Positions 26,726 to 46,483 of a stretch of 64,000 nt of DNA are shown in pieces (the first letter of the stretch is position 1; every line of letters begins with the position of its first letter). The position numbers and the translations under genes are program-made. The notes under the pieces were generated by a model, which searched no databases, was not told the DNA's origin, and saw only the letters and a program-made list of their open reading frames with translations. Source of the stretch: Candidatus Bathyarchaeota archaeon (GTDB lineage: Archaea; Thermoproteota; Bathyarchaeia; Bathyarchaeales; Bathycorpusculaceae); contig CAWGZR010000005.1 in the NCBI GenBank assembly GCA_963827165.1, positions 288,001 through 352,000 of the forward strand, in the 5' to 3' direction.

Positions 26726-26813
26726 GCAGGGGTCTCCAAGTCTGGTCAAAGGAGTAGGGCTTAGGACCCTATCGCGCAGGCGTTCGTGGGTTCAAATCCC
26801 ACCCCCTGCACCA
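26726..26813 (+). tRNA. tRNA-Leu(TAG), CCA encoded
   Basis: GCAGGGG/CCCCTGC acceptor, TAGGG-CTTAGGA-CCCTA anticodon arm, long variable arm, GGTTCAAATCC. Confidence 0.95.
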
Positions 26814-26866: not shown

Positions 26867-28186
26867 TTATAGCTTGCGTTTTCTAAAGATTTTTGCGCCG
26901 TCGAATTCTGTGACGTATTCAAAGCCTGCTTCTATTAAGCTGCAGATTTCTTTTTCTGTCTTGGCTACTTTTGAGATGTAGTTTGTTTCGCCTTGGAATA
27001 GTGCTTCTTCAAGTTGGACGTATAAAAGTGTGTTTTTGATGTTTTTGTGGCCTAAGTCGTTGCATTACATAGAGCATGTCTTTGGTTTCGTGATAGAGCA
27101 TTGTTCCTTTCCAGTATCGGAAGGTATGGAAGTGGATTTTTAGCAGTCTAGGGTTGCTGAAGCTTGTATGACGGTTCTTTTTCGTTGGTGGTTAAGTGCT
27201 TACCGTAGTTGTCGATTCTCATGTTAGGTAAGTGAAAATATTTTGTCTCCGTAGTTTTTGGGAGCTTTTCGAGCATTTCTAAGAGTTTATTACTCAGGTG
27301 TACAACACGTGGGTTACTGTGTTTTTCGGCTGTTATATTGACAACTTTGCTTTCGAAGTCTATGTCCTCCCATTTTAGCTGCCAGATTTCTCCGCATCTT
27401 GCACCAGTTTCTTTTAGAACTTGCAGGAATGTTGCCATACGTTGAGTGCAGCCAGCTATGAGTTGGTCGATTTCTGTTTCTTTGGGGATGAATGGCAGTT
27501 TACGGATTGTTTGGTATAGCGGTGGATTCCCATGTGCCTCCGACCATTTTTAGGAATGAGCAGTAGGCATCTACAGCGTTGTTTTTTCTGCCGTTGCTCC
27601 AGGTTTGTTTAGCGATTGTTTCTTTGATAGTTTCTGGGTCGTAAAGGTTTGCGCCTCTTTTGTTGAGCACTTGAAGGAGTTTTGTTCTTCCGATGATTGT
27701 GGCTTCGCTTTTTCCGTCTTTTTTTAGCCACCAGGCATATTCGATGATTTTTCCTTTGACGTCGCCAGTTTGGTTTCTCCGCAGAACTTCAAATGGTTGA
27801 TGTTCTGCTTCCAAGTTTTTCGTCTCCGTGACGCATATTTGGCTTGCGTCAACTATGTCGTCTGTGCTTTTTAATGACTTCGATCAACTGTTTCAATTTC
27901 TTTCAAGTTGGCTGCGGCTTGCTTTGCTTTTTCTGTGTCGTTTGGGTCTGAAAATCTGCGTCCGCAGTCTCTGCAGTACCATCGTTGAATTTCATACCCG
28001 AAGCTGTCTTGTCGTTTGGCATCTTTCCAGACCTCTTTTGGATTTGCATAGGGGACATACAGGAAGAATAAGATCTGAACCTGCGTAATCAGTGAATTGG
28101 TTAATCGTTTCAGCAACTGTATCATTAGAGCTTATTGTAGTCACGTCAGTCACGGGAGTCACGGTCAAAATACAGTGGCTATCCAA
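26867..28186 (-). pseudogene. Tyrosine recombinase/integrase with N-terminal zinc ribbon, split by several frameshifts (possibly sequencing error)
   Basis: Fragments CPLC..CRDC, ETGARCGE, hand-translated IHFHTFRYWKGT..LGHKNIKNTLLY. Confidence 0.85.
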
Positions 28187-28334: not shown

Positions 28335-29703
28335 TTACTCATGGGTTTTGCCTTTAACTTTTATGAATGCAGGTAGTCCTTTTCCTGCGATGTTGAGGCT
28401 GTTTAACGTTTTTCGTATGCATTGGCTGCTCCATCTAAAGTGTTCCTCTATGGTTTTAGTGGTTAGTGGTTTGGTTTCAAGTGCTTCTGTTCCTTGTTCT
28501 TCATCTATTTCGGCGCTATCCAGAAAATAGTATTTTCCCGGTTGCCATTGTGAAAATAAGCCAGCGTCTGTTTTTCCCATAGGTAATTGATAATTAGACC
28601 ATCCATGCTGCCTGCTTTTTCTTCTATTTTAGCGCGTTGGATTGCTTTTGCTGTGTCAGTGATTGAGGTTTTGAGTGTGGGTTCATATTTTGATAGTGCT
28701 AACAAAGGTAGTAGGCTTGCTATTAGTCTGTGGTCGATTAAATCTTCTATCCAGCTTTCTTTGTTTATTACAACCTGTTGATAATAGGTCATGCGAAGGT
28801 ATAGCAGCTTATTCTGTAGAGCTAAGCCTTCCTTGATCATGCTGTCTGTTTCGAGTACTGGAATTTTCTTGTCACTGACTTCGCTGTAGTAGGGGATTGA
28901 TCTGCTTTCTGTTGCGTTGTCGTCAAAGGCTTTTCTTTGGGTTAGTATTGTTAAGCCGAAATTTGCAAATGTATCCGTCTGATTTGCGTTTGTCGGGTTT
29001 TGTCTGCTTAAGGGTGTCCCAGTCGCTCTACAATTTAGGAAATGTACAAGTTCGCTTTGTTCGTTGGTGTTGGCGAAGTCTGCTTCATCGAGAATTAGAG
29101 TTCCTTGCCATAGATCCAGTGGTCTGTAGAGGCTGGGTATTTTGTTTGTTGACATTTCAAAGTAGGGGCGGTAGCATAGCAATCTAAGAACGAATGCTAA
29201 TCTGTTTTTTCCGCTTTGGCTTGGTCCACGAATTGGTATGAGGGGTGCAAATTTTCCGCTGCCTGCTATATCAAATGTTTGGTCAGAAACAAAACGGTCT
29301 ATCCACCATGAACCAACAGAAATCTAGCTAACAGTTTAACTAAAGCATCTGTCCTCGGGGGTCATAGCTTTCTAAGGCGAATTTGTCGATTTCCCCCAAA
29401 TATTCCCTGAAAACTGGTCTCAGTGTATCCGCTTGGAACTATGACTAAGCCTTTTTTGAGTGAGTCGTTGAATACTGGGGTGTAGATTATGTTTTGTCCT
29501 TTGCTGTTGACTTCGCCCAATGAGATTTGTTGTTGTTCATCAAAGGTTTTGGTTGCAAAATTGTATCTTAGGTATTTAGGCGGGTTTTTTCTATCCCAGA
29601 TTTCTTCTGCTATAAACTCGTTTGTTATTACGGTCGGCTTTTGGATGTAGTGGTCTTTTTCTTGTGCTTGCTGCTCGATTTTACTTATTCTAGCGTTCAT
29701 CAT
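28335..29703 (-). pseudogene. P-loop ATPase/helicase-like replication protein, frameshifted
   Basis: Walker A GPSQSGKN (upstream of 29182, same frame) and Walker B TLILDEAD; fragments 29362-29703, 28505-29250, 28335-28580. Confidence 0.7.
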
Positions 29704-30717
29704 TGTTTTCTGGCTCCAGCGTTTATCGCTTCGATGACTTCCATTATTCCTGAACTGCCTTTGAGATTTCCAATGTTGGCACGGTTGTTGAATTGGTAGT
29801 CTACCGTTGAGATAAATTCCGCTGTTTCAAGGCTTGGCGTGTTGGTTCTTTTGCAGAGTTCTTCGATGATTTCTCTTGCTGACTGATGGGCTATGCCTTC
29901 TTTTATGCACATACCGCAGAAGCTCATGGTTAAATCGTTTCTGTAGCCTTCCTTCCAATATTTAGTGAGCGTATTTACTGTGTTTTCTTGGTCTTGGCTG
30001 CTTAGTTTTTTGAATGTTTTTGGTGTTTCAAAGGCTAATTGAACGCTCTTTTTGGTTTCCATGTTTTCGAGTTTTTGCGTTTCGGCTTCGCTGAAGCTTA
30101 AGCCATGTTTGTTTTCGAGTTCTTCGATGGGTAAGGGTTCGAATGTGTCGAGGTGAGCATTCGGCTCCATTTGCTTTCCACTTGATGCTTTCCAAAGGGT
30201 AGTTTAACAAAGTTTCCATAGGGTGTTTGCGGAGTTAGCGAGTCTTGTTTGGGAAATACTTCGATTTGTTTTGGGTTAAGATTTGCCATCTCTAATATGC
30301 GCAGCCCCAGCCAGCGTGCTGCTTTTGCCTGTACCGGAATGAGGAATAATAGCCAAATATGGTATGAGGGGTTGGATAACGAGACGCTTCAAGGATTATG
30401 CAGTTAGGCCATATTCTGGGTGTTTGATTGCCTTCTTTGTCAGTGGTCTTGTGCAGGAGGATGCTTAGGATTTGTTGCGCAGTAGTTTTTGGGTCAGATA
30501 GTTTTTCGGGGTCTAAGTCAAGGCAGAGCCATTTCACAAGGTTATTGAGGTCTAGTTGATAGCTGCCCACCGTGGTCTTTCCGTCTAAATGCTGCCGTAA
30601 TATTTCGTTGGTTAATATTTGGGGTAGTTTGCTGTAGCCTTGCTTTAGTTGTACGCAGTAGCAGTCTGTGCGGTTAACAAACAAGTCTTTGAGGATAGTT
30701 AAGATATCGGTGGTCAT
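29700..30717 (-). pseudogene. AEP superfamily primase-polymerase (TOTE-type-like) with PriCT-like C-terminus, frameshifted
   Basis: HLDGKTTVGSY..WLCLDLD motif I, EVFPKQ..GNFVKLPFGKH, EGYRND PriCT-like segment. Confidence 0.75.
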
Positions 30718-33609: not shown

Positions 33610-35096
33610 TTAGTTAGCTCGGGTTCTATTTTCTTTTAGTTCTTCGATGATGCTGTTGAATTGTTCCAGCGCTGATTGCAGGTTTTCCGCTATTTCTGCT
33701 GCTAAGATTTCGGGCGCTGGCAGGTTTTCTGTGTCTTCTAGGCTTTCGTCTTTGAGCCAGAAAATATCCAAGTTTGCTTTGTCTCGTTGCATAAGCTCAT
33801 TGTAGGTGAAGGCTTTGAAACGTTCTGTTTCTTTCCGGTCATGGCGGTTTTTTGGGTTATAGCATTTTATGAAGTCTTCCAAGTCTTTGTAGGCTAACTG
33901 CTTGTTTTTGAGTGTGAAGTGTTTGTTGGTGCGTAAGTCGTATATCCAGAGTTTTTCGTGTCCAAGGTGTTTCGCTGGCTGGTTTGCGGTCAAAGAAGAG
34001 CACGTTGGCTTTTACTCCTTGAGCATAGAATATGCCAGTTGGCAACCTGAGAAGCGTGTGGACGTCGCATTCATGGAGGATTTTTCGTCTTACGGTTTCG
34101 CCTGCTCCGCCTTCAAAGAGCACATTATCTGGCACAACTATAGCTGCTTTGCCGTTAATTTTCAGAAGTGTTTTGACATGTTGGAGGAAGTTTAGTTGTT
34201 TGTTGCTTGTTGTTGCCCAGAAGTCTTGGCGCTCATAGGTTAAGGCTTCTTTGTCTGCTTTGCCATCGCCATTGGTTAGGGTGACGCTGCTTTTCTTGCC
34301 AAACGGCGGATTAGTCAAAACCATATCGTAGCGTGTGCCGGGGTCAGCTAATCAGCGAATCGCCTGTTTCAATAGGGCATGGCTGGTCAACTTCGCCATC
34401 GATGCCATGAAGAAACAAGATTCATAACACATAAGCGCACAACATTGTCAACTATGTCTTTTCCGGTAAAAGTTTTGAATCTGAGGAATCTTTTCTGTTC
34501 CAAATCAAGTTGAAATTAGCTTGAAATATAGTCGTGGGCTGCAATAATGAAGCCGCCTGTTCCGCATGCTGGGTCGTTAATGGTCATGCCTGGTTTTGGC
34601 TCCATAACCTCAACCATAGCTTTAATAAGTGATCGAGGAGTGAAATATTGTCCAGCACCACTTTTGATGTCTTCAGCGTTTTTTTGAAGCAAGCCCTCGT
34701 AGATTTCGCCTTTAACATCAATATCCATCCCAATCCAAGTTTCATTGTTGATGAGTTCAAGTAGGCGTTTGAGTTTGGCTGGGTCTTGGATTTTGTTTTG
34801 TGCCTTGCGGAAGATAACGCCTAACATGCCTTTCTCTTTGCCCAAAGACTTCAAGCAAGTGGCGATAATGGATTTCGAGTTCTGTTCCGTCTTTAGATGT
34901 TAGGCTTTGCCAATCCAAATCCTTGCGGAATAGTTGAATGTTTATTGAATGGTGGCTTAGTTTGCTCATCAGCCATCTTCAAGAAAAGCAAATAAGTCAA
35001 CTGCTCAACGTAATCGCCATAACTAACCCCATCATCCTTAAGAACATTGCAGTAATTCCAAACTCTCTGAACTATCGATGCTGATTCATTTGACAT
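33610..35096 (-). pseudogene. hsdM: Type I R-M methyltransferase HsdM (N6-adenine), frameshifted
   Basis: GAGQYFTPR, DPACGTGG, TNPPFG, LRLPTGIFY, IYDLRTN. Confidence 0.92.
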
Positions 35097-36547
35097 AATG
35101 AGACAACTCCACTTGATTATTATTTTTAGATTTCTATTGTTGAAACGTTCAGCTTTTATGCGTTCTAACAACTTCTCAGCAGGCTCATCAGCAGGGTCTT
35201 GAGGAACAAGTTTCCCTGCAAAAGCGTCTTTTAAAATACTTTGACGAAATTCTCACTAATGACAATTTGTCTTACAGTTTCTTCAGTTTCATCTAATGAC
35301 GAAAAATACGTTTCAACATTTTCACTATTTCCTTTTGTTCAACAAGTGGTGGAAGGGATCGGTATTGATTTCAAGTATTGTCAGGTTTACATATGATTTG
35401 ACCAGTGCCTAGTTACTTCTTTCAGTCTAATATTTGTAGACCAATTGAGAACATAAAAATAATTCAAATAGTTTGGCAATTTTTCACTGCAAATGGATCC
35501 AAACTAATTAATATGTGCTAAACACAAAGTCTTCTTTGAATTCACCAGTTACAGCGGTCTTGACCAACGATATTTAAAGTTCCATTCTGTTCGAAAACAG
35601 AAATCGTCACTTGGCTAACAGATTAGACTGTTTAATTGATTCTCTTCATTTTGGCATGTTACATAGAATCTACTTCAAGACGAGCCTTAACTATGTTGTA
35701 TTCGTAAAACAGGAAATCCTTCGGTGCTATGGAAAAGTTCCTTTAGGATATTCCATCCTCCTGAATATTAGAAGTTTCACCATATTTGTCCAAACCCATG
35801 TTTCAGGCAACTTGGGAAAATCATGAATCTCGTTATTTAACCATATTTTCGGCTATCTTTTTCTGATCTTTTATGCTTTGGTTACCTATTCTAGCAGTTT
35901 TTGATGCTGATTCTATCTGTTCTTTGTGTGTTTTTCGCCATTTTCTGTTAGTTTCCCTTCAAAGGCGTATTTTAGAACTGCTTGGCGGTAACGCTTAAGT
36001 TGCGCTTGCACTGCAGAGCGATTCTACGCCTGCATCGAGAAAAGAAAACAACTCCTCAACTTGCGAACAATACGAACTTGCTCATTAAATGGGAGCAAAA
36101 GGGATTGATAATTTGCGAATTACTTTTATTTCGATAGGTACGTTCCGTTGTCCGAAGCTTTATTCAATTATGCTTTTTTGAAATATTGATAAATGCACAT
36201 AAAATATATGAATTCAGAAAGATTATGGTTCTACAACGACGCATTTATTTCTGGTCACTGACCTCAGCAGCGAACAGTTTTCCTCGATTGATGCCTAGAA
36301 GGAAACCATGACTGTCTTTTTTGGCACAAGCCTTCTGTTCTAGCCCAAGTATTTGAGAGCTTGTTTCGATCTTTAACAATAAATTTCCCAGAATTGTAGG
36401 TCAGTTGGTTTGAGAATGGATAATATTTCCATAATTTCTGAGCAAGCTTGGAGGTGTTGTTCCCGTTACAACATTACCAATTGTTGAGACAGTTTACCGA
36501 CGCCCATCCGTTAGGCAACTGAGGAGATTAGCTATTTTCCTACTCAC
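35086..36547 (-). pseudogene. hsdS: Type I R-M specificity subunit HsdS, heavily frameshifted
   Basis: N-terminal LPNGW, central YRQAVLKYAFEG, C-terminal RQSILKDAFAGKLVPQDPADEPAEKLLERIK; lies between hsdR and hsdM. Confidence 0.85.
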
Positions 36548-39301
36548 TTTGTTAGCACCATGTTTAGTTCTTCTAGTGTTTTGTTTAGTTCTTTTCCGAA
36601 TAGTTGGTAGGCTTTGACTGCTCCGCCTTTCTGGTTAAAGGGTGATAGTTCGAAGGCGTCTATTCCAACGTTTAGGCTGGTGGTTATGTGTTGTTTTATC
36701 ATGTTTAGCCATTCAGTCTGTTCAGGCGTGAATTGTTTGCCATGGCTTTTTTGGTTGTTTAGCCATGCATTAAAGTTGCGGTCTACTTCGTCTGGGAAGG
36801 GCTCTAAAACGTTAGCTGAGCCGACTGCGAAGCGGACAAGAGAAACAATGTTGGTTAAGAGTTTCTGTGGACCGGCACCCAACACTTTTGATTTTTCCAA
36901 CTGTTCATAGGCAAGCCAAACGAGTTCAGGCGTCAAGTTATACGGTGGCTTCTTGATTGCATCAGCGAACTCTTTAATGGCGCCATAGGTTAATTGCCTT
37001 CTTCCAAAGGGTTGGCTGTAAATAATTTGAAGCGCCGTTAACTCATCTTTGTTCTTCTCGATAAAGTCTTTGAAAGATTTAACCGTTAATTTGAGCTTTC
37101 TCAGACGACTGCCTGGATCATGACCCTGCGGAAACCACTTCGTCTTTACTGACGTTGTCGATGGTTTGCTCATTTGCTCTGTTTAATCTCTATGACTTTG
37201 TTTCTGAACTCGGGCATATCAAAAACAGCACACGCAACCTTAGCCAATTCGTCAGCGCCCTTTTTAAATTGTAGGGGGTTGGGTTATCGGTTTTGAAGAG
37301 TTGTTTTGCTTTTTCAAGTTGCTTATCTGGGTCAACAGCATCTAATAATTCATTGATAACTTCTTTGAGCGTTTTCCTCCACCGCTTCGTTTTCAATCTC
37401 TTTGTGGAGCCTCATCCAATTCACGGTCAAAACGGGCAAGCGTCCAGCCAAAGAAGTCAAAGTATCAGTATCCCTAACACCCATAGCAACTGAATCCAAC
37501 AACTTATCAAAAGGAACTACTTCGCTTACGCTCTAACGGGCGGGAATCAGTTTTGTCGCTCTCACAAACACCCACCGCATCAACTATAACAAAATGGGTC
37601 TTGCTTCAGCATCCCCCGTAACCGACTTCAAATCAGTATCGGAAATAGTTCTTGTGCCCCGACCTTTCATCTGCTCAAAATAGACGCTTGAATGAATATC
37701 ACGCATAAACAACAAACACTCAAAAGGGCGAATGTCTGTGCCTGTAGAAATCATATCCACTGTAACCGCAACCCGTGGATTATACGAGTTTCTAAAGCTG
37801 GCAATCAAAACCTCAGTGGGTTCTCGCTATTGGTGCGGTAAGTAATTTTCTTGCAGAAATCATTTCCTTTGCCAAATTCTTCACGAATAATCTCAACAAT
37901 GTCCTCAGCATGGCTGTCATCCTTAGCAAAAACCAAGGTTTTAGGAACTTCTTTCGCCCAGGAAAAATCTCCGTAAACAGTTTGTCTCTGAAAGTGCGGA
38001 TAACCGTTCTTATCTGATCCTTAGCTACAACACTGCGGTCAAGCGCCCTAGCCTCATACTCTAAATCATCAGCTAACTGCTCCCAACGTACTTTGCGGCT
38101 TAGCTTATCACGTTTGTCAACATAAAAGCCAGCCTCAACCTTGCTGCCGCCACCAGTAATCTTTGTGTTAATGCGGTAAACATCATAGCCAACATTTACC
38201 CCGTCAGCTACGGCTCGGTCATGTCCATACTCCATAACAAATTCTGGTTAAAGAAACCCAAAGTTTGCTTAGAAGGCGTCGCCGTTAACCCAATGATGAA
38301 TGCGTCAAAATACTCAAGCACTTGACGCCACAAGATGGTAAATCGAGCGGTGGCACTCATCAGTAATTATCACATCAAACATTTCAAGAGGAATCTCAGG
38401 GTTATACACTACGTCAACGGGTTTAGTGTCTTTTTGGGGTAACTCAAAAGAGGAGGCTTCCTCGTTTTCCTCCAAAAAATCCTCACCGCGAAGCATAGCA
38501 TAGAGCCGTTGAATAGTTGTAATGCAAACTCTGCTTACTGAATCAATATTACGGGAAGTTAACCGTTGAACATTATACAACTCGGTGAACTTGCGGCCAT
38601 CATCAGGCGTTCCTATATTGCTGGAACTCCTGCAAAGTCTGTTTGGCTAAAGTATTGCGGTCAACTAAAAACAAAACCCGCCGAGCACCACCAAACTTTA
38701 TCAAACGGTAAACTTCGGTAACTGAGGTAAACGTTTTGCCACTGCCAGAAGCCATTTGAATTAACGCTCTGGGACGCGAATTAGCTAACGACAACTCCAA
38801 GTTCTCTAAGGCTTCAACTTGGCAATCACGCAACCCCTCCTTGATCAAAGGCGACATAGACCGCAAACGCTGCCTAAGCGTGCTCTCCTCATGCACCCAC
38901 TCATGCAACGTCTCAGGCTTATGAAAAGCAAAAACATGCCTCGAACGGCAATCGGGGTCACGCAAATCCCTAAAAAACGTCTCTACTCCCGTGCTTTCAT
39001 AAGCAAAGGGTAAAACATCGCCAACATGGGGGATATTCTGGGGCAAACTATGCAGATACTTCTCTGTCTGCTCCGAAACCCCACTTAAAGTCGTGCCTTC
39101 AGACTTAGCCTCCACAACACCTATGGCATGACGCTCAACAAATAACAAATAATCTGCAAACCCAGCTCCACTCAAAGGAAACTCGCGAACCGCAACGCCA
39201 ACACCGGCACCAAGGTTCAAATCCTTGTAATCCTGCACTAACCATCCTGCAGCTTCAAGCAACGCATCAATTTTTTTGCGAGCGGATTCCTCTGGTTTCA
39301 T
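36544..39301 (-). pseudogene. hsdR: Type I R-M restriction subunit HsdR (EcoEI-like), frameshifted
   Basis: ADYLL..VVEAK nuclease, MASGSGKT, DECHR, GLTATP, VDMISTGTD, QMKGRGTR. Confidence 0.92.
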
Positions 39302-42050: not shown

Positions 42051-42542
42051 TTAAACGTTTTTTGTTATACTAGCCGCTCGAAGATATCGCATTGAAACGG
42101 TCAATCGATTTCTGCTTAAGCTGTTTTTTATACCGTTGTTTATTTTTGTATCTCCTTTTCCTCTGCTTGCATGGCCAAAGCGGGCAATTTTCCAATTCTT
42201 GAGGTTTCCACGTATAATCTGGGGGTTGCTTGTGACTATGTAGAAAGGCATTTTTGTCTGCGAAGTGTAGAGCTCAGCTATGAAGCTTAAAAGCAGCTTT
42301 CCAACGCCGATACCTTGGTAATCAGGTAAAACAACTAATCTGCTTACTCTATAATAATTTGACTTCATACGAGTGTGAACTACAGCGATGAATGCTATTG
42401 GCTTATCCTGATAGACTGCTATGTAGCACCGCGCAGTTGAAGCCAATGAGCCGTTTAGATAGTGATAGTGTCGAAACATCTTCCAAAGAGAAGCGCCGCA
42501 CCGATAAACCTTGAGTTCAACGGGCGGCCGACTTCTTTTTTT
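42051..42542 (-). CDS. GNAT (Mom-like) acetyltransferase domain, in -1 frame relative to the upstream ABC ATPase
   Basis: WKMFRHYHYLN, RVSRLVVLPDYQGIGVG acetyl-CoA motif, TSNP; frame open back to the A7 run. Confidence 0.85.
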   Translation of the reverse strand, partial: KKRSRPPVELKVYRCGASLWKMFRHYHYLNGSLASTARCYIAVYQDKPIAFIAVVHTRMKSNYYRVSRLVVLPDYQGIGVGKLLLSFIAELYTSQTKMPFYIVTSNPQIIRGNLKNWKIARFGHASRGKGDTKINNGIKNSLSRNRLTVSMRYLRAASITKNV

Positions 42543-43135
42543 CGGCTAAACTCCATTGTGTCAGTGCAGAAAACCCAGTCTGGCTCTAACCAATCAACCA
42601 CATCGTAATGGCAAGTAACAGCTATGAACTTCATCTTTGATCGTCTGACAGCCTTGCTGATTGCATATGCGCTTACTTTAGCTATTTCCCTATCAACAAC
42701 GCTCGTAAACTCATCAAAAACAATCAAAGGTTTATCAAAGCATAGGGCATGGGCTATGTCTACTCGCATCTTTTCCCCTTGGCTAAGACACTCATAGCTT
42801 TTAAGCCAGTCAGGTGGAGAAGCAAAACCCACACTGCAAAGAGCTCTCGTAATCTCACCGGTCTCAAGCTGCTCGGGAAAATCATCCAAGACGCATTTAT
42901 GTGTGTATTCAAAGCCTCTTATGTACGCATCAGGGAAAAGCTGCTTAGCAATGCTTGTTTTACCCGAACCACTACGACCAACAATGATGCCAACTTGCCA
43001 CTCATCATCTTCAATAGGAAGAGAGCCTTTGAACTGCTTCTCCAACTTAACATCTGACAACGTATAGCTGCCTACAACACTTAGCGCTCTAAAAGTGTCG
43101 GCTTGATCCCAATGTTTTACAACGTCAAAATCCGT
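42455..43135 (-). CDS. Soluble ABC-type ATPase of a ParB-ABC-GNAT module (start at TTG 43060 or ACG 43135)
   Basis: GRSGSGKT, LSQGEKMR, FDEFTSVVDR, TCHYD; no permease nearby. Confidence 0.88.
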   Translation of the reverse strand, partial: TDFDVVKHWDQADTFRALSVVGSYTLSDVKLEKQFKGSLPIEDDEWQVGIIVGRSGSGKTSIAKQLFPDAYIRGFEYTHKCVLDDFPEQLETGEITRALCSVGFASPPDWLKSYECLSQGEKMRVDIAHALCFDKPLIVFDEFTSVVDREIAKVSAYAISKAVRRSKMKFIAVTCHYDVVDWLEPDWVFCTDTMEFSRKKEVGRPLNSRFIGAALLFGRCFDTITI

Positions 43136-43674
43136 AGCTTATACCCCTCCAACTTTAGCTTCTCAAAAATACTTTTCTGATTAACTTCATCCTTGCACTC
43201 TACGATTATTTCATAAGTCTCAGGAATAGAGAGCGAGACGTCACGTTCGCCTAACTCCTCAGGCAATTTCTCACCTATTGATTCAAGGAGCGCCTTTAAA
43301 TCATCTTTTTCACCCATCTGCAGTATGCGTATGTACTCGACGTTGTCCAACTCTTTGTTGTGTTTGCCTTTTAGCTTGTTGAGGATTTGCCTAAGCATCC
43401 TTCTATCCACATCACTGACTGGTAAGCGCAGAACGGGCGCGTAGAACTCGCTATGCTGCTTGCACACTTCAGCTCGTTGCTCGCCATCAGCATACACGCC
43501 GTCCTTGTTAGTTATTATTGGGTAAGCCCAACCGTACTTTTGCAGACTATGCCAAATCTGCTCTTGCTGCTTAACTGTGGTTCGGTTAGGATTGTTCTGG
43601 TCTGCAGTTAAAAGACGAATATCTTCACAAAGGGGCATAGGCTTCTGGAATTCTAAGGGTAGTCTTATTTTCAT
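43117..43674 (-). CDS. ParB/sulfiredoxin N-terminal domain protein
   Basis: NNPN, SLQKYGWAYPII, DGEQR, LNKLKG. Confidence 0.8.
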   Translation of the reverse strand: MKIRLPLEFQKPMPLCEDIRLLTADQNNPNRTTVKQQEQIWHSLQKYGWAYPIITNKDGVYADGEQRAEVCKQHSEFYAPVLRLPVSDVDRRMLRQILNKLKGKHNKELDNVEYIRILQMGEKDDLKALLESIGEKLPEELGERDVSLSIPETYEIIVECKDEVNQKSIFEKLKLEGYKLRILTL

Positions 43675-45331: not shown

Positions 45332-46483
45332 ATGGGTCGGGAGTTAACCAGTATTCACTTCACGGGATGCAAAATCATGAATAAAAAATTGTCAGTAGCC
45401 ATTTTTGTAACGTGTTTTCTTTTTTCACTTATACTTTTTTCACAAATATCCTATTGTCAAACATCAACACCAACCTCTACAACACAGCCAACCCCAACGA
45501 AAGGATCAATATTTGGAGGTTCCAATGCCTTATTGCTTATTGTCGGAATCGTAGCAGTTATTGCAGTAGTTGTTGGACTTACGTTTGTATTTGTTTTAAA
45601 AAAGGGGCCGAATGAAAAGCGCCTCAGTGGTTTTTCACCCCGTGACTTCGAAGCCTGGGTAATAAAGAAATTCAATGGTAAACCAGGCGACCCGTCTTGG
45701 GGAGTAAATGGGTTTACTGAGGGAGGTCAACCTCTTTTGATTAAACAGTCCGGCCCAGTCAGCTTGGCCGAGGTTGAAGCTTTCGTGAAAGTGTTAGTTG
45801 ACGGAAGGGCACAAATGGGCACAATTGTAGCGTTCGATTTTGACAACGATGCCTCTGAAGGAAAAATAATAGCGATGGATAATGGGGTTGAACTTCAGCT
45901 AATGTCCATAAATGAGCTTGTGAATAAGCGCTATGCTGATAGGATTAAAAACCTTGCGCGTTCACAGGTTACCTTTGAGGTGCCGCCTGCATATATGGCG
46001 AATGACCAAATGACTCGAGAAGCGCCCATTAATGAAAGAGCGCCAATTGAGCCCCAAAAAGAGGATCTGAAACCTCGGGTCTTCATATCTAATAGCAAAA
46101 CTCAGGTCTCCAATCAAGTGATGAAAATGCTAGATTTTCTGCATTTCGACTATGTAATGGGAGATAAAGAAGAAACAACCGTGCCAATTCCTAACAATAA
46201 ATTTGGAATGATGAAAGATTGTGATTGTGCAATAATAAATATCGCTGCCGCTGAACAGGAGAGGAGGTACAGTGGACTTTACGTCTTAAATACTAATGTC
46301 ACCTCTGAAATCAACGCAGCCTATCTGAACTACAGTAGGCAAGTTATTTTGTTGGTTGAGAGAAAAGTTGACTTGCCTGCAAATCTTAAGGGTCTGATAA
46401 GAATTGAGTATGATAGTGATGATTTATCTTTCAACGTTGCAATGGATCTCAAGGACGCATTGGAAGGCTTTAAAAAACTGTAG
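45332..46483 (+). CDS. Membrane-anchored fusion: signal/TM, degenerate Mrr-like nuclease fold, TIR-like nucleotide-binding domain (start probably 45377)
   Basis: Two hydrophobic helices; SPRDFEAWV..GVNG..LLIKQS..GTIVAFDF; RVFIS..CDCAII..NVTSEINAA..ILLVE..LPANLKG. Confidence 0.75.
   Translation: MGRELTSIHFTGCKIMNKKLSVAIFVTCFLFSLILFSQISYCQTSTPTSTTQPTPTKGSIFGGSNALLLIVGIVAVIAVVVGLTFVFVLKKGPNEKRLSGFSPRDFEAWVIKKFNGKPGDPSWGVNGFTEGGQPLLIKQSGPVSLAEVEAFVKVLVDGRAQMGTIVAFDFDNDASEGKIIAMDNGVELQLMSINELVNKRYADRIKNLARSQVTFEVPPAYMANDQMTREAPINERAPIEPQKEDLKPRVFISNSKTQVSNQVMKMLDFLHFDYVMGDKEETTVPIPNNKFGMMKDCDCAIINIAAAEQERRYSGLYVLNTNVTSEINAAYLNYSRQVILLVERKVDLPANLKGLIRIEYDSDDLSFNVAMDLKDALEGFKKL

Follow-up and report, generated by a model that had tools for sequence, protein, structure and literature searches.

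The 64,000-nucleotide (nt) stretch of a Candidatus Bathyarchaeota archaeon genome that was analysed here as a whole (the window; contig CAWGZR010000005.1, positions 288,001 to 352,000) carries on its minus strand a module of three genes encoding, in this order, a ParB-like protein, an ABC-type ATPase and a GNAT acetyltransferase, the frame of the GNAT being -1 to that of the ATPase (Table 1). ATPase and GNAT domains come together in one protein of the window only via a frameshift, and the two frames are probably parts of a single gene, joined by a programmed -1 ribosomal frameshift (PRF) at a run of seven adenines (A7). The ATPase open reading frame (ORF) matches positions 30–200 of the 357 positions of phrog_11143 (E 6e-56), and the GNAT matches positions 217–352 (E 7e-24); since phrog_11143 covers both halves, ATPase and GNAT are one protein in viral relatives. 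The last 26 residues of the unshifted ATPase product are a frame-0 tail encoded past the slip site, and the predicted transframe product, counted from the TTG start, consists of 175 + 161 = 336 amino acids (aa). Upstream of this TTG the ATPase frame stays open for 26 further codons to a TAA (43061-43140, minus strand). The open stretch (..DFDVVKHWDQADTFRALSVVGSYT) belongs to the protein in relatives of 207–226 aa and contains no ATG, GTG or TTG in the window; the start of the window's ATPase is uncertain, or its N terminus may be shortened.

Around the site the ATPase frame reads GAG TTT AGC CGA AAA AAA GAA GTC on the minus strand. Immediately before the slippery run a TAG terminates the -1 frame, which rules out an earlier shift; past this TAG the -1 frame reads PKKRSRPPVELKVYRCGASLWKMFRHYHYLN... 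through to the GNAT stop at 42051-42053. In frame 0 a TAA (42457-42455) is reached 26 codons past the run, and the junction peptide of the shifted product is predicted to be ...EFSRKK-RSRPPVELK.... The first-pass annotation, drawn up from the sequence of the window, had described an A7 heptamer, a 7-nt spacer and a hairpin, with a -1 shift leading directly into the GNAT. Coordinates and register of these features were confirmed on the minus strand, and the -1 frame is open from the TAG to the GNAT stop; the nearby frame-0 stop is likewise present, at a distance of 26 rather than about 25 codons. The attributes by which PRF sites are recognized, a heptamer of the form X_XXY_YYZ in the 0-frame register followed after a spacer of 5–9 nt by a stable structure, are found together here. 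Folding of 66 nt gave -28 kcal/mol against a mean of -16.5 for dinucleotide shuffles (z -3.96), with 1 of 200 shuffles being equally good. Runs of exactly seven A or T number 1460 in the 3.13-Mb genome (44.5% G+C) and are thus common, so that the feature of the site that stands above chance is its conservation and not its mere existence.

Table 1. Features of the ATPase–GNAT module, its slip site and the surrounding element. Positions are those of the window, except for the other module copies.
Feature	Position	Strand	Details
ParB-like N-terminal domain protein	43117..43674	-	185 aa; phrog_620/phrog_498, E 6e-12 to 1e-13
ABC-type ATPase, frame-0 product	42455..43060	-	201 aa from TTG; PF00005, E 2.7e-8
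GNAT ORF	42051..42479	-	142 codons, ATG at 42479; PF13508/PF00583
-1-frame part of predicted fusion	42051..42536	-	19-residue linker/β1/α1 segment RSRPPVELKVYRCGASLWK + 142-codon GNAT ORF
GGAG, Shine-Dalgarno-like	42550..42553	-	8 nt upstream of heptamer
TAG closing -1 frame	42546..42548	-	just 5′ of slippery run
Slippery heptamer A_AAA_AAA (A7)	42536..42542	-	0-frame register; then G at 42535
Spacer GAAGTCG	42529..42535	-	7 nt; variable among relatives
Predicted stem-loop	42495..42528	-	GCCGC-CCG-TTGAAC-[TCAAG]-GTTTAT-CGG-T-GCGGC
Integrated element	roughly 27-45 kb		about 18 kb; adjoins tRNA-Leu 26726-26813
Integrase fragment	27148-27438
AEP (archaeo-eukaryotic) primase fragments	29700-30717
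Type I restriction-modification, HsdM	33610-35171		in pieces, in several frames
Type I restriction-modification, HsdR	36544-39301		in pieces, in several frames
Seven other module copies	C12:76274-76873, C13:38897-39499, C9:315756-316352, C11:189811-190359, C3:302001-302621, C10:404853-405453, C5:28939-29533		57-84% ATPase identity

The arrangement of the two frames was compared in 224 related loci (64 from viral contigs, 80 from species-representative genomes and 80 from metagenomes), the half-frames being located by tblastn. The species-representative set consisted nearly entirely of metagenome-assembled genomes (MAGs) titled Bathyarchaeota or Bathyarchaeia, often with several copies per genome. 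A Bathyarchaeia-type module was also present at L097, L109, L130, L136 and L141 in MAGs titled Anaerolineaceae, Phycisphaerales, Gallionella and Alphaproteobacteria, which could be due to mis-binning of short contigs or to a wider host range. Over all loci the GNAT frame is -1 in 177, in frame in 45 and +1 in 2. The 177 loci with a -1 frame have runs of A7 (155), A9 (16), A8 (3) or A10 (1), with no run longer than four in the remaining 2; the register is the same for every locus of the A7 set, and the three A8 loci result from a CGA>CAA substitution that leaves the register unchanged. At 60% ATPase identity or more (180 loci, 158 distinct junctions) the split is almost universal, with 175 loci in -1, 3 in frame and 2 in +1. 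Of the in-frame exceptions, L020 owes its frame to an A10 run and L132 and L139 to 1-nt insertions downstream, and the +1 exceptions (L128 and L135) carry extra indels. The window's genome itself holds eight copies of 57–100% identity, all in -1 (six with A7 and two with A9), and the module is part of a multi-copy element family; two of the eight copies are also broken within the ATPase body.

The same picture emerged from protein and contig collections. In a collection of 5.8 billion proteins, the best 120 matches (80–98% identity) are all frame-0 products of 196–282 aa with the same tail, and fused proteins of at least 353 aa appear once at 72% identity and otherwise at no more than 64%. A 196-nt Logan contig of sequencing run X2 is identical to window positions 42366-42561, and thus reproduces A7 at 42536-42542 with no indel, subject to the caveat that the sequencing run may be the source sample itself; the contigs of relatives in run X7, also Logan contigs, span the A run with no indel there. 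Close homologues that were all in-frame fusions had been named beforehand as the finding that would speak against recoding, and 175 of the 180 close loci are split instead; the alignment of homologous loci that had been proposed as a check shows both a conserved split and a conserved slippery site. It is with high confidence, then, that the A7 run with its -1 split can be regarded as a conserved programmed -1 recoding site.

An alignment of 119 distinct full-length genes, 103 of them strictly A7, was used to assess how the slip site and the -1 frame have been selected. It drew on the 138 loci with single full-length matches for both halves; the remainder of the 180 close loci was left out of this alignment. 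The two lysine codons of the heptamer are AAA AAA in 103 of 103 distinct A7 genes, compared with a ratio of AAA to AAG of 1245:1062 elsewhere in the gene, and the preceding arginine codon, always with A as its third base, is CGA in 95 genes and AGA in 8. Across the gene of roughly 340 codons, the median codon entropy was 1.76 bits (for the 128 four- or six-fold codons whose residue is conserved), and the seven least variable codons all lie between 0 and +49 nt: CCC +20, GGC +47, CCG +17, CTC +29, GTT +23, CGG +41 and CGA 0. Entropies at the three codon positions were 0.42, 0.27 and 1.35 in the ATPase and, read in the -1 register, 0.73, 0.54 and 1.49 in the GNAT past the overlap, a pattern indicating that the GNAT is maintained as a protein in the -1 register; within the overlap the third-position entropy is lowered to 0.68. 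The boundaries of the overlap are similarly fixed, the frame-0 stop lying exactly 26 codons past the run in 145 of 148 distinct junctions and the -1-frame stop 3–4 codons 5′ of the re-read A in 133.

The place at which the frame changes can be read from proteins in which no change is needed. The linkers of 32 natural in-frame fusions, namely L020 and distant viral relatives 29–40% identical to it, gave the consensus F.WRS.VQ.RP.L.L.IH....S.W..F..HHYLS, which the window matches in frame 0 up to EFSRKK and then in the -1 frame from RSRPPVELKVYRCGASLWKMFRHYHYLN. The 19 codons 5′ of the GNAT ATG are conserved in the -1 frame, with a near-invariant R..RP and an invariant W. A structure of the natural in-frame relative L020 (361 aa), standing in for the joined protein of the window, was modelled with AlphaFold2 at a mean predicted local distance difference test (pLDDT) score of 84.1. 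In this model the slip site falls in a low-confidence linker (residues 201–210), and strand β1 (210–214) and helix α1 (216–225) of the GNAT precede the point that corresponds to the window's ATG, so that a GNAT begun at that ATG would be a truncated fold.

Downstream of the run, the outer eight base pairs of the stem (GCCGCCCG / CGG-T-GCGGC, with one bulged T) are each kept in 117–133 of 133 distinct A7 junctions, and the spacer and the 3′ flank are free to vary. The outer stem is present in the minimum-free-energy fold of 130 of 134 A7 sequences, the 45 nt past the run having a mean free energy (dG) of -17.9 and a median z of -2.56. In alignment A1 (149 sequences) 86.4% of the cells pair, compared with 27–60% in slid controls. 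On the 5′ side, among A7 genes with glutamate at the GGAG site 84 use GAG and 5 use GAA for it, against a ratio of GAA to GAG of 758:712 elsewhere in the gene. The 3′ end of the genome's 16S rRNA reads ...GATCACCTCCT, with whose CCUCC the GGAG can pair, and GGAG is a possible 5′ stimulator. A long-range pairing between an upstream GAGTT and a loop AACTC was considered and rejected, because the upstream stretch, within about 11 nt of the heptamer, would presumably sit inside the ribosome.

Several observations weigh against a programmed ribosomal frameshift or against the signal proposed for it. The inner helix of the hairpin is often mismatched (AT 94 and AC 38, CG 85 and CA 39 of 133) and is specific to the window and its close kin. 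No covariation support was obtained for the hairpin as drawn (score 0.076, shuffled 0.077), with double-sided changes at 3 pairs where 1.9 were expected; the test has low power since the outer pairs hardly vary. RNAalifold likewise gave no consensus structure for 149 mixed A7 and A9 sequences. Of the hairpin as first annotated, it is the outer stem that proved conserved; the inner helix did not, and the covariation sought for it was not found. The outer stem is found in only 1 of 15 A9 sequences, in which the mean dG is -6.2 and the median z +0.48. On a tree built without the columns of the site itself, run length changed about four times, and loss of the stem accompanies the long run in 3–4 of the 4 independent contrasts and never the reverse, for which a sign test gives p of about 0.125; the pairing of a short run with a stem and of a long run with none suggests compensation. 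The synonymous constraint around the site could instead reflect selection on the overlapping frame-0 tail, and two of its codons, GTT +23 (95/96) and CTC +29 (99/100), are near invariant yet lie outside the conserved outer stem. An ATG, GTG or TTG occurs between the site and the GNAT core in 127 of 148 distinct junctions. The transframe protein is a predicted one, and RNA run X11 covers only window positions 42800-42954, the slip site lying outside. Finally, ARAGORN detected tRNA-Lys(CTT) and no tRNA-Lys(UUU) in the genome; the detected set of 36 tRNAs (41 with introns) is incomplete, and nothing follows from this absence.

The two near-invariant codons correspond to window positions 42513-42522, in the predicted loop and inner helix, and are explained neither by the hairpin model nor by the other tests.

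The distribution of the split was followed in a tree of ATPase sequences with 82 rows, comprising all in-frame and odd loci and 35 randomly sampled close -1 loci. A single clade (support 97/97) unites the -1 loci, with only two in-frame tips (L020 and L132) among 41 rows; the remainder of the tree consists of in-frame forms, with L051 as a separate -1 case on a long branch. Variant heptamers also stand in register, A_AAA_AAG in L229 and L051 and A_AAA_AAC in L230. The ATPase has matches in 76 GenBank phage records, none of which reaches 60% identity. In five of five Firmicutes phages examined, Streptococcus prophage 315.4 (L236), Javan420 (L239), MismyG (L240), Lactococcus P335 (L238) and Oenococcus vB_OeS_unk162 (L237), the GNAT is in the -1 frame and the frame-0 stop falls at the same YHYL codons, and there is no A run. 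Four of the five share CAG GTT TTT C (T5; GGTTTTTC), a motif also present in viral contig L021, and the Oenococcus phage has ACA AAG GGC, which reads A_AAG_GGC; the exact slip positions in these phages are presumed from such motifs. Both GGTTTTTC and A_AAG_GGC are too short or insufficiently homopolymeric, which makes them poor sites for stuttering by RNA polymerase. The phage records, in which slippage is nowhere annotated, list a 225- or 226-aa 'ABC transporter' and a short ORF after it; the gene upstream is ParB in 315.4 and MismyG, 'DNA modification methylase' in Javan420 and the Oenococcus phage, and 'unknown' in P335. In the jumbo phage pT24 of Tenacibaculum (L241; NC_049383.1, locus 2130-2145), ATPase and GNAT are in the same frame, an in-frame TGA lies inside the GNAT, and two coding sequences (CDS) are annotated.

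A tentative proposal, held with less than even confidence, is that the frame change itself and not the slip motif has been conserved over a viral ATPase–GNAT clade comprising Firmicutes phages and Bathyarchaeia elements. The motif would then have been replaced several times (T5, A_AAG_GGC, A9, A7 with hairpin) with linker position and YHYL stop remaining fixed, and the reason would be to set an excess of GNAT-less ATPase subunits, for example in asymmetric ABC-type dimers. If true, this would be an ancient recoding conserved across domains, with a natural series in which run length is traded against RNA structure.

A -1 ribosomal slip and one A added to the transcript give exactly the same protein, and programmed transcriptional slippage, in which RNA polymerase stutters on the A run and lengthens some transcripts by one A, is therefore the natural alternative. 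The RNA structures known to stimulate transcriptional slippage arise in nascent RNA on the 5′ side of the run; the hairpin conserved here, however, lies 3′ of the run at PRF spacing. Stuttering would suit the 16 loci of the 224 that have A9, since 14 of the 15 distinct A9 junctions folded without the downstream hairpin, and according to the available part of PMC3711429 the output of Mg-chelatase cassettes in E. coli grows with run length, frameshifting reaching 10% for A7, 40% for A9 and 63% for A11, with slippage in bacteria becoming efficient at A9. But the window and 155 of the 224 loci have only A7, short of the run of about nine or more that the process calls for, and relatives that keep the frame change with A_AAG_GGC or T5 do so on poor stuttering substrates. 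As the explanation of the site, transcriptional slippage appears unlikely. Still less probable is that the locus holds two ordinary overlapping genes without recoding, the GNAT being started separately at its own ATG or by re-initiation. Such an ATG does exist in the window (MFRHYHYLN), with an ATG at the same position in 83 of the 148 distinct junctions and three codons earlier in 25, and two separate CDS are annotated in the GenBank records of the related Firmicutes phages. Yet in 21 of the 148 junctions the interval from the site to the F.RYHYL motif lacks any ATG, GTG or TTG, the conserved 19 codons 5′ of the ATG align with the linker, β1 and α1 of the in-frame fusions, and a start at the ATG would in the model remove β1 and half of α1; the invariant AAA AAA and the -1 stop just before the run would moreover be left unexplained.

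That the split is an assembly or sequencing error concealing a true A8, or that the gene is dead in a decaying element, is largely refuted and retains only a very small probability. The surroundings could invite this view, for the element contains a fragmented integrase, primase, HsdM and HsdR, the assembly consists of 14 contigs, and two of the eight genomic copies are broken in the ATPase body. The sequencing-error reading is refuted because the -1 split recurs across related loci, A7 with -1 being present in 155 of the 224 from many assemblies and collections and in the contig of an independent sequencing run, and purifying selection acts on the GNAT as read in the -1 register. Furthermore, five of the ten frame-switch overlaps in the element hold neither an A/T run of at least five nor a C/G run of at least four; as its breaks lie mostly off long homopolymers, the element looks decayed and not mis-called. 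The remark in the first-pass annotation that homopolymer errors are common in this element was thus not borne out, its other genes being broken mostly at places without long runs. The A run might also be imagined as a contingency tract, its length altered by slippage during DNA replication so that the fusion is alternately on and off. The family does contain runs of different length (A7, A8, A9 and A10), and the close relative L020 is in frame by A10. Nevertheless such phase variation seems scarcely credible, because in-frame run lengths are almost never seen: only 1 of the 180 close loci is in frame by run length, the A8 cases are register-keeping substitutions, and the other two in-frame loci owe their frame to 1-nt insertions downstream of the run. 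A switching tract would in addition be expected to yield a mixture of ON and OFF forms, whereas the X2 and X7 contigs over the site contain no indel in the run.

Under the preferred programmed -1 ribosomal frameshift, most ribosomes would keep frame 0 and terminate 26 codons on, yielding the 201-aa ATPase with its short tail. Some would slip back by one base with two Lys-tRNAs on A_AAA_AAA, presumably aided by the G+C-rich stem-loop 7 nt downstream and perhaps by the GGAG 8 nt upstream through pairing with the 16S 3′ end. The shifted ribosomes would produce the 336-aa ATPase–GNAT fusion, equivalent to the single-frame proteins of distant viral relatives. Both products would presumably be needed, for example in mixed ABC-type dimers with fewer GNAT than ATPase domains, and the slip may set the ratio of free ATPase to fusion. 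A ribosomal slip is favoured by the valid heptamer registers, by the 3′ structure at canonical spacing and by the relatives with no long run; hairpin-less A9 relatives, and the published rise of Mg-chelatase output with run length, point to a contribution of transcriptional slippage.

A close parallel among well-known sites is E. coli dnaX, in which the tau and gamma products arise by a -1 shift on A_AAA_AAG with an upstream Shine-Dalgarno-like element and a downstream stem-loop. The present site resembles it in the in-register lysine heptamer, the G+C-rich stem-loop downstream, the possible Shine-Dalgarno-like GGAG and the two products per gene, and relatives L229 and L051 use exactly A_AAA_AAG. 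In dnaX, however, it is the shifted frame that terminates almost immediately and encodes the shorter product, whereas here shifting adds a whole GNAT and the shorter product comes from the unshifted frame; the host here is an archaeon, the Shine-Dalgarno-like element is only 4 nt, and the hairpin is without covariation support. For archaea, the available part of a 2021 review (PMC8211752) gives the alpha-L-fucosidase gene fucA1 of Sulfolobus (Saccharolobus) solfataricus as the only experimentally demonstrated -1 PRF, the halovirus and Mg-chelatase cases being predictions. The fucA1 gene is likewise an archaeal gene of two -1 overlapping ORFs with an A-rich heptamer and a putative stem-loop, but by the same account it is split in two strains of one species, the other Sulfolobales having a full-length gene with a run one A shorter (PMC8211752, available part). 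At the window's site, by contrast, a large clade has kept the split, in 175 of the 180 close loci. The Mg-chelatase cluster of Antonov et al. 2013, as described in the available part of PMC3711429, shows a conserved -1 transition on a variable poly-A run (A7, A9, A11), joining two domains that other species have as a fusion, and it occurs in bacteria and in Methanocaldococcus/Methanococcus. It concerns another protein family, and the available part of that paper mentions no downstream hairpin, whereas the window's family combines short runs with a hairpin and long runs with none, over about 4 independent contrasts.

As to the protein family, 177 of the 224 related loci have a ParB-like homologue immediately before the ATPase, with other neighbours variable. 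Sequence searches of NCBIfam and PDB returned generic ABC nucleotide-binding domains only, and in PADLOC the ABC signature region weakly matched mad3 (7e-13). Foldseek also retrieved ABC nucleotide-binding domains, with TmcA (2zpa), a two-domain ATPase–GNAT protein, at ranks 9–10 (TM-score 0.37); TmcA is an architectural analogue only. The ESM Atlas clusters of 355–400 aa proteins combining ABC_tran and Acetyltransf are mostly viral. A GNAT coupled with an ABC ATPase has been predicted to be a phage system for acylation of a DNA base (Iyer, Zhang, Burroughs, Aravind 2013, as cited in the available part of PMC7824862), for which that text gives Tenacibaculum phage pT24 as an example of an ATPase–GNAT system. 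Phage pT24 matches the window's ATPase at 39.5% identity over 75% of its length. The module of ParB-like protein and ATPase–GNAT belongs to this virus-borne family of putative base-acylating systems, with which it shares an ABC ATPase and a GNAT beside a ParB-like protein; the systems described in the available part of PMC7824862 are fused proteins, with no frameshift mentioned there, whereas here the two domains are split by a -1 frame. Literature searches found no paper describing this ATPase–GNAT frameshift, and none was found in a search on COG2401. The papers on Bathyarchaeia and archaeal proviruses that were found, with supplements outside the search, make no mention of ABC, GNAT, ParB or frameshifting.

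In the window the module lies in an integrated element (Table 1), of which the ParB, ATPase and GNAT genes look like the intact part, the element otherwise being decayed. No packaging genes occur in the element downstream of the module. Just outside the element, window positions 45332-46483 (plus strand) encode a protein of 383 aa that has a hydrophobic segment at its N terminus and weakly matches PF10137, the CAP12/Pycsar TIR effector domain (E 1.7e-4, below the family cut-off).

The site offers more than 150 natural sequence variants, including an apparent trade-off between run length and downstream hairpin. Since counterparts exist in phages of tractable bacteria, the signal requirements on archaeal and bacterial ribosomes are directly comparable. 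For thousands of database entries the annotation, at present an 'ABC-transporter ATPase' followed by an orphan acetyltransferase, would be corrected. A predicted DNA-acylating enzyme would thereby be implied to exist in two forms, which is relevant to any attempt at its reconstitution.

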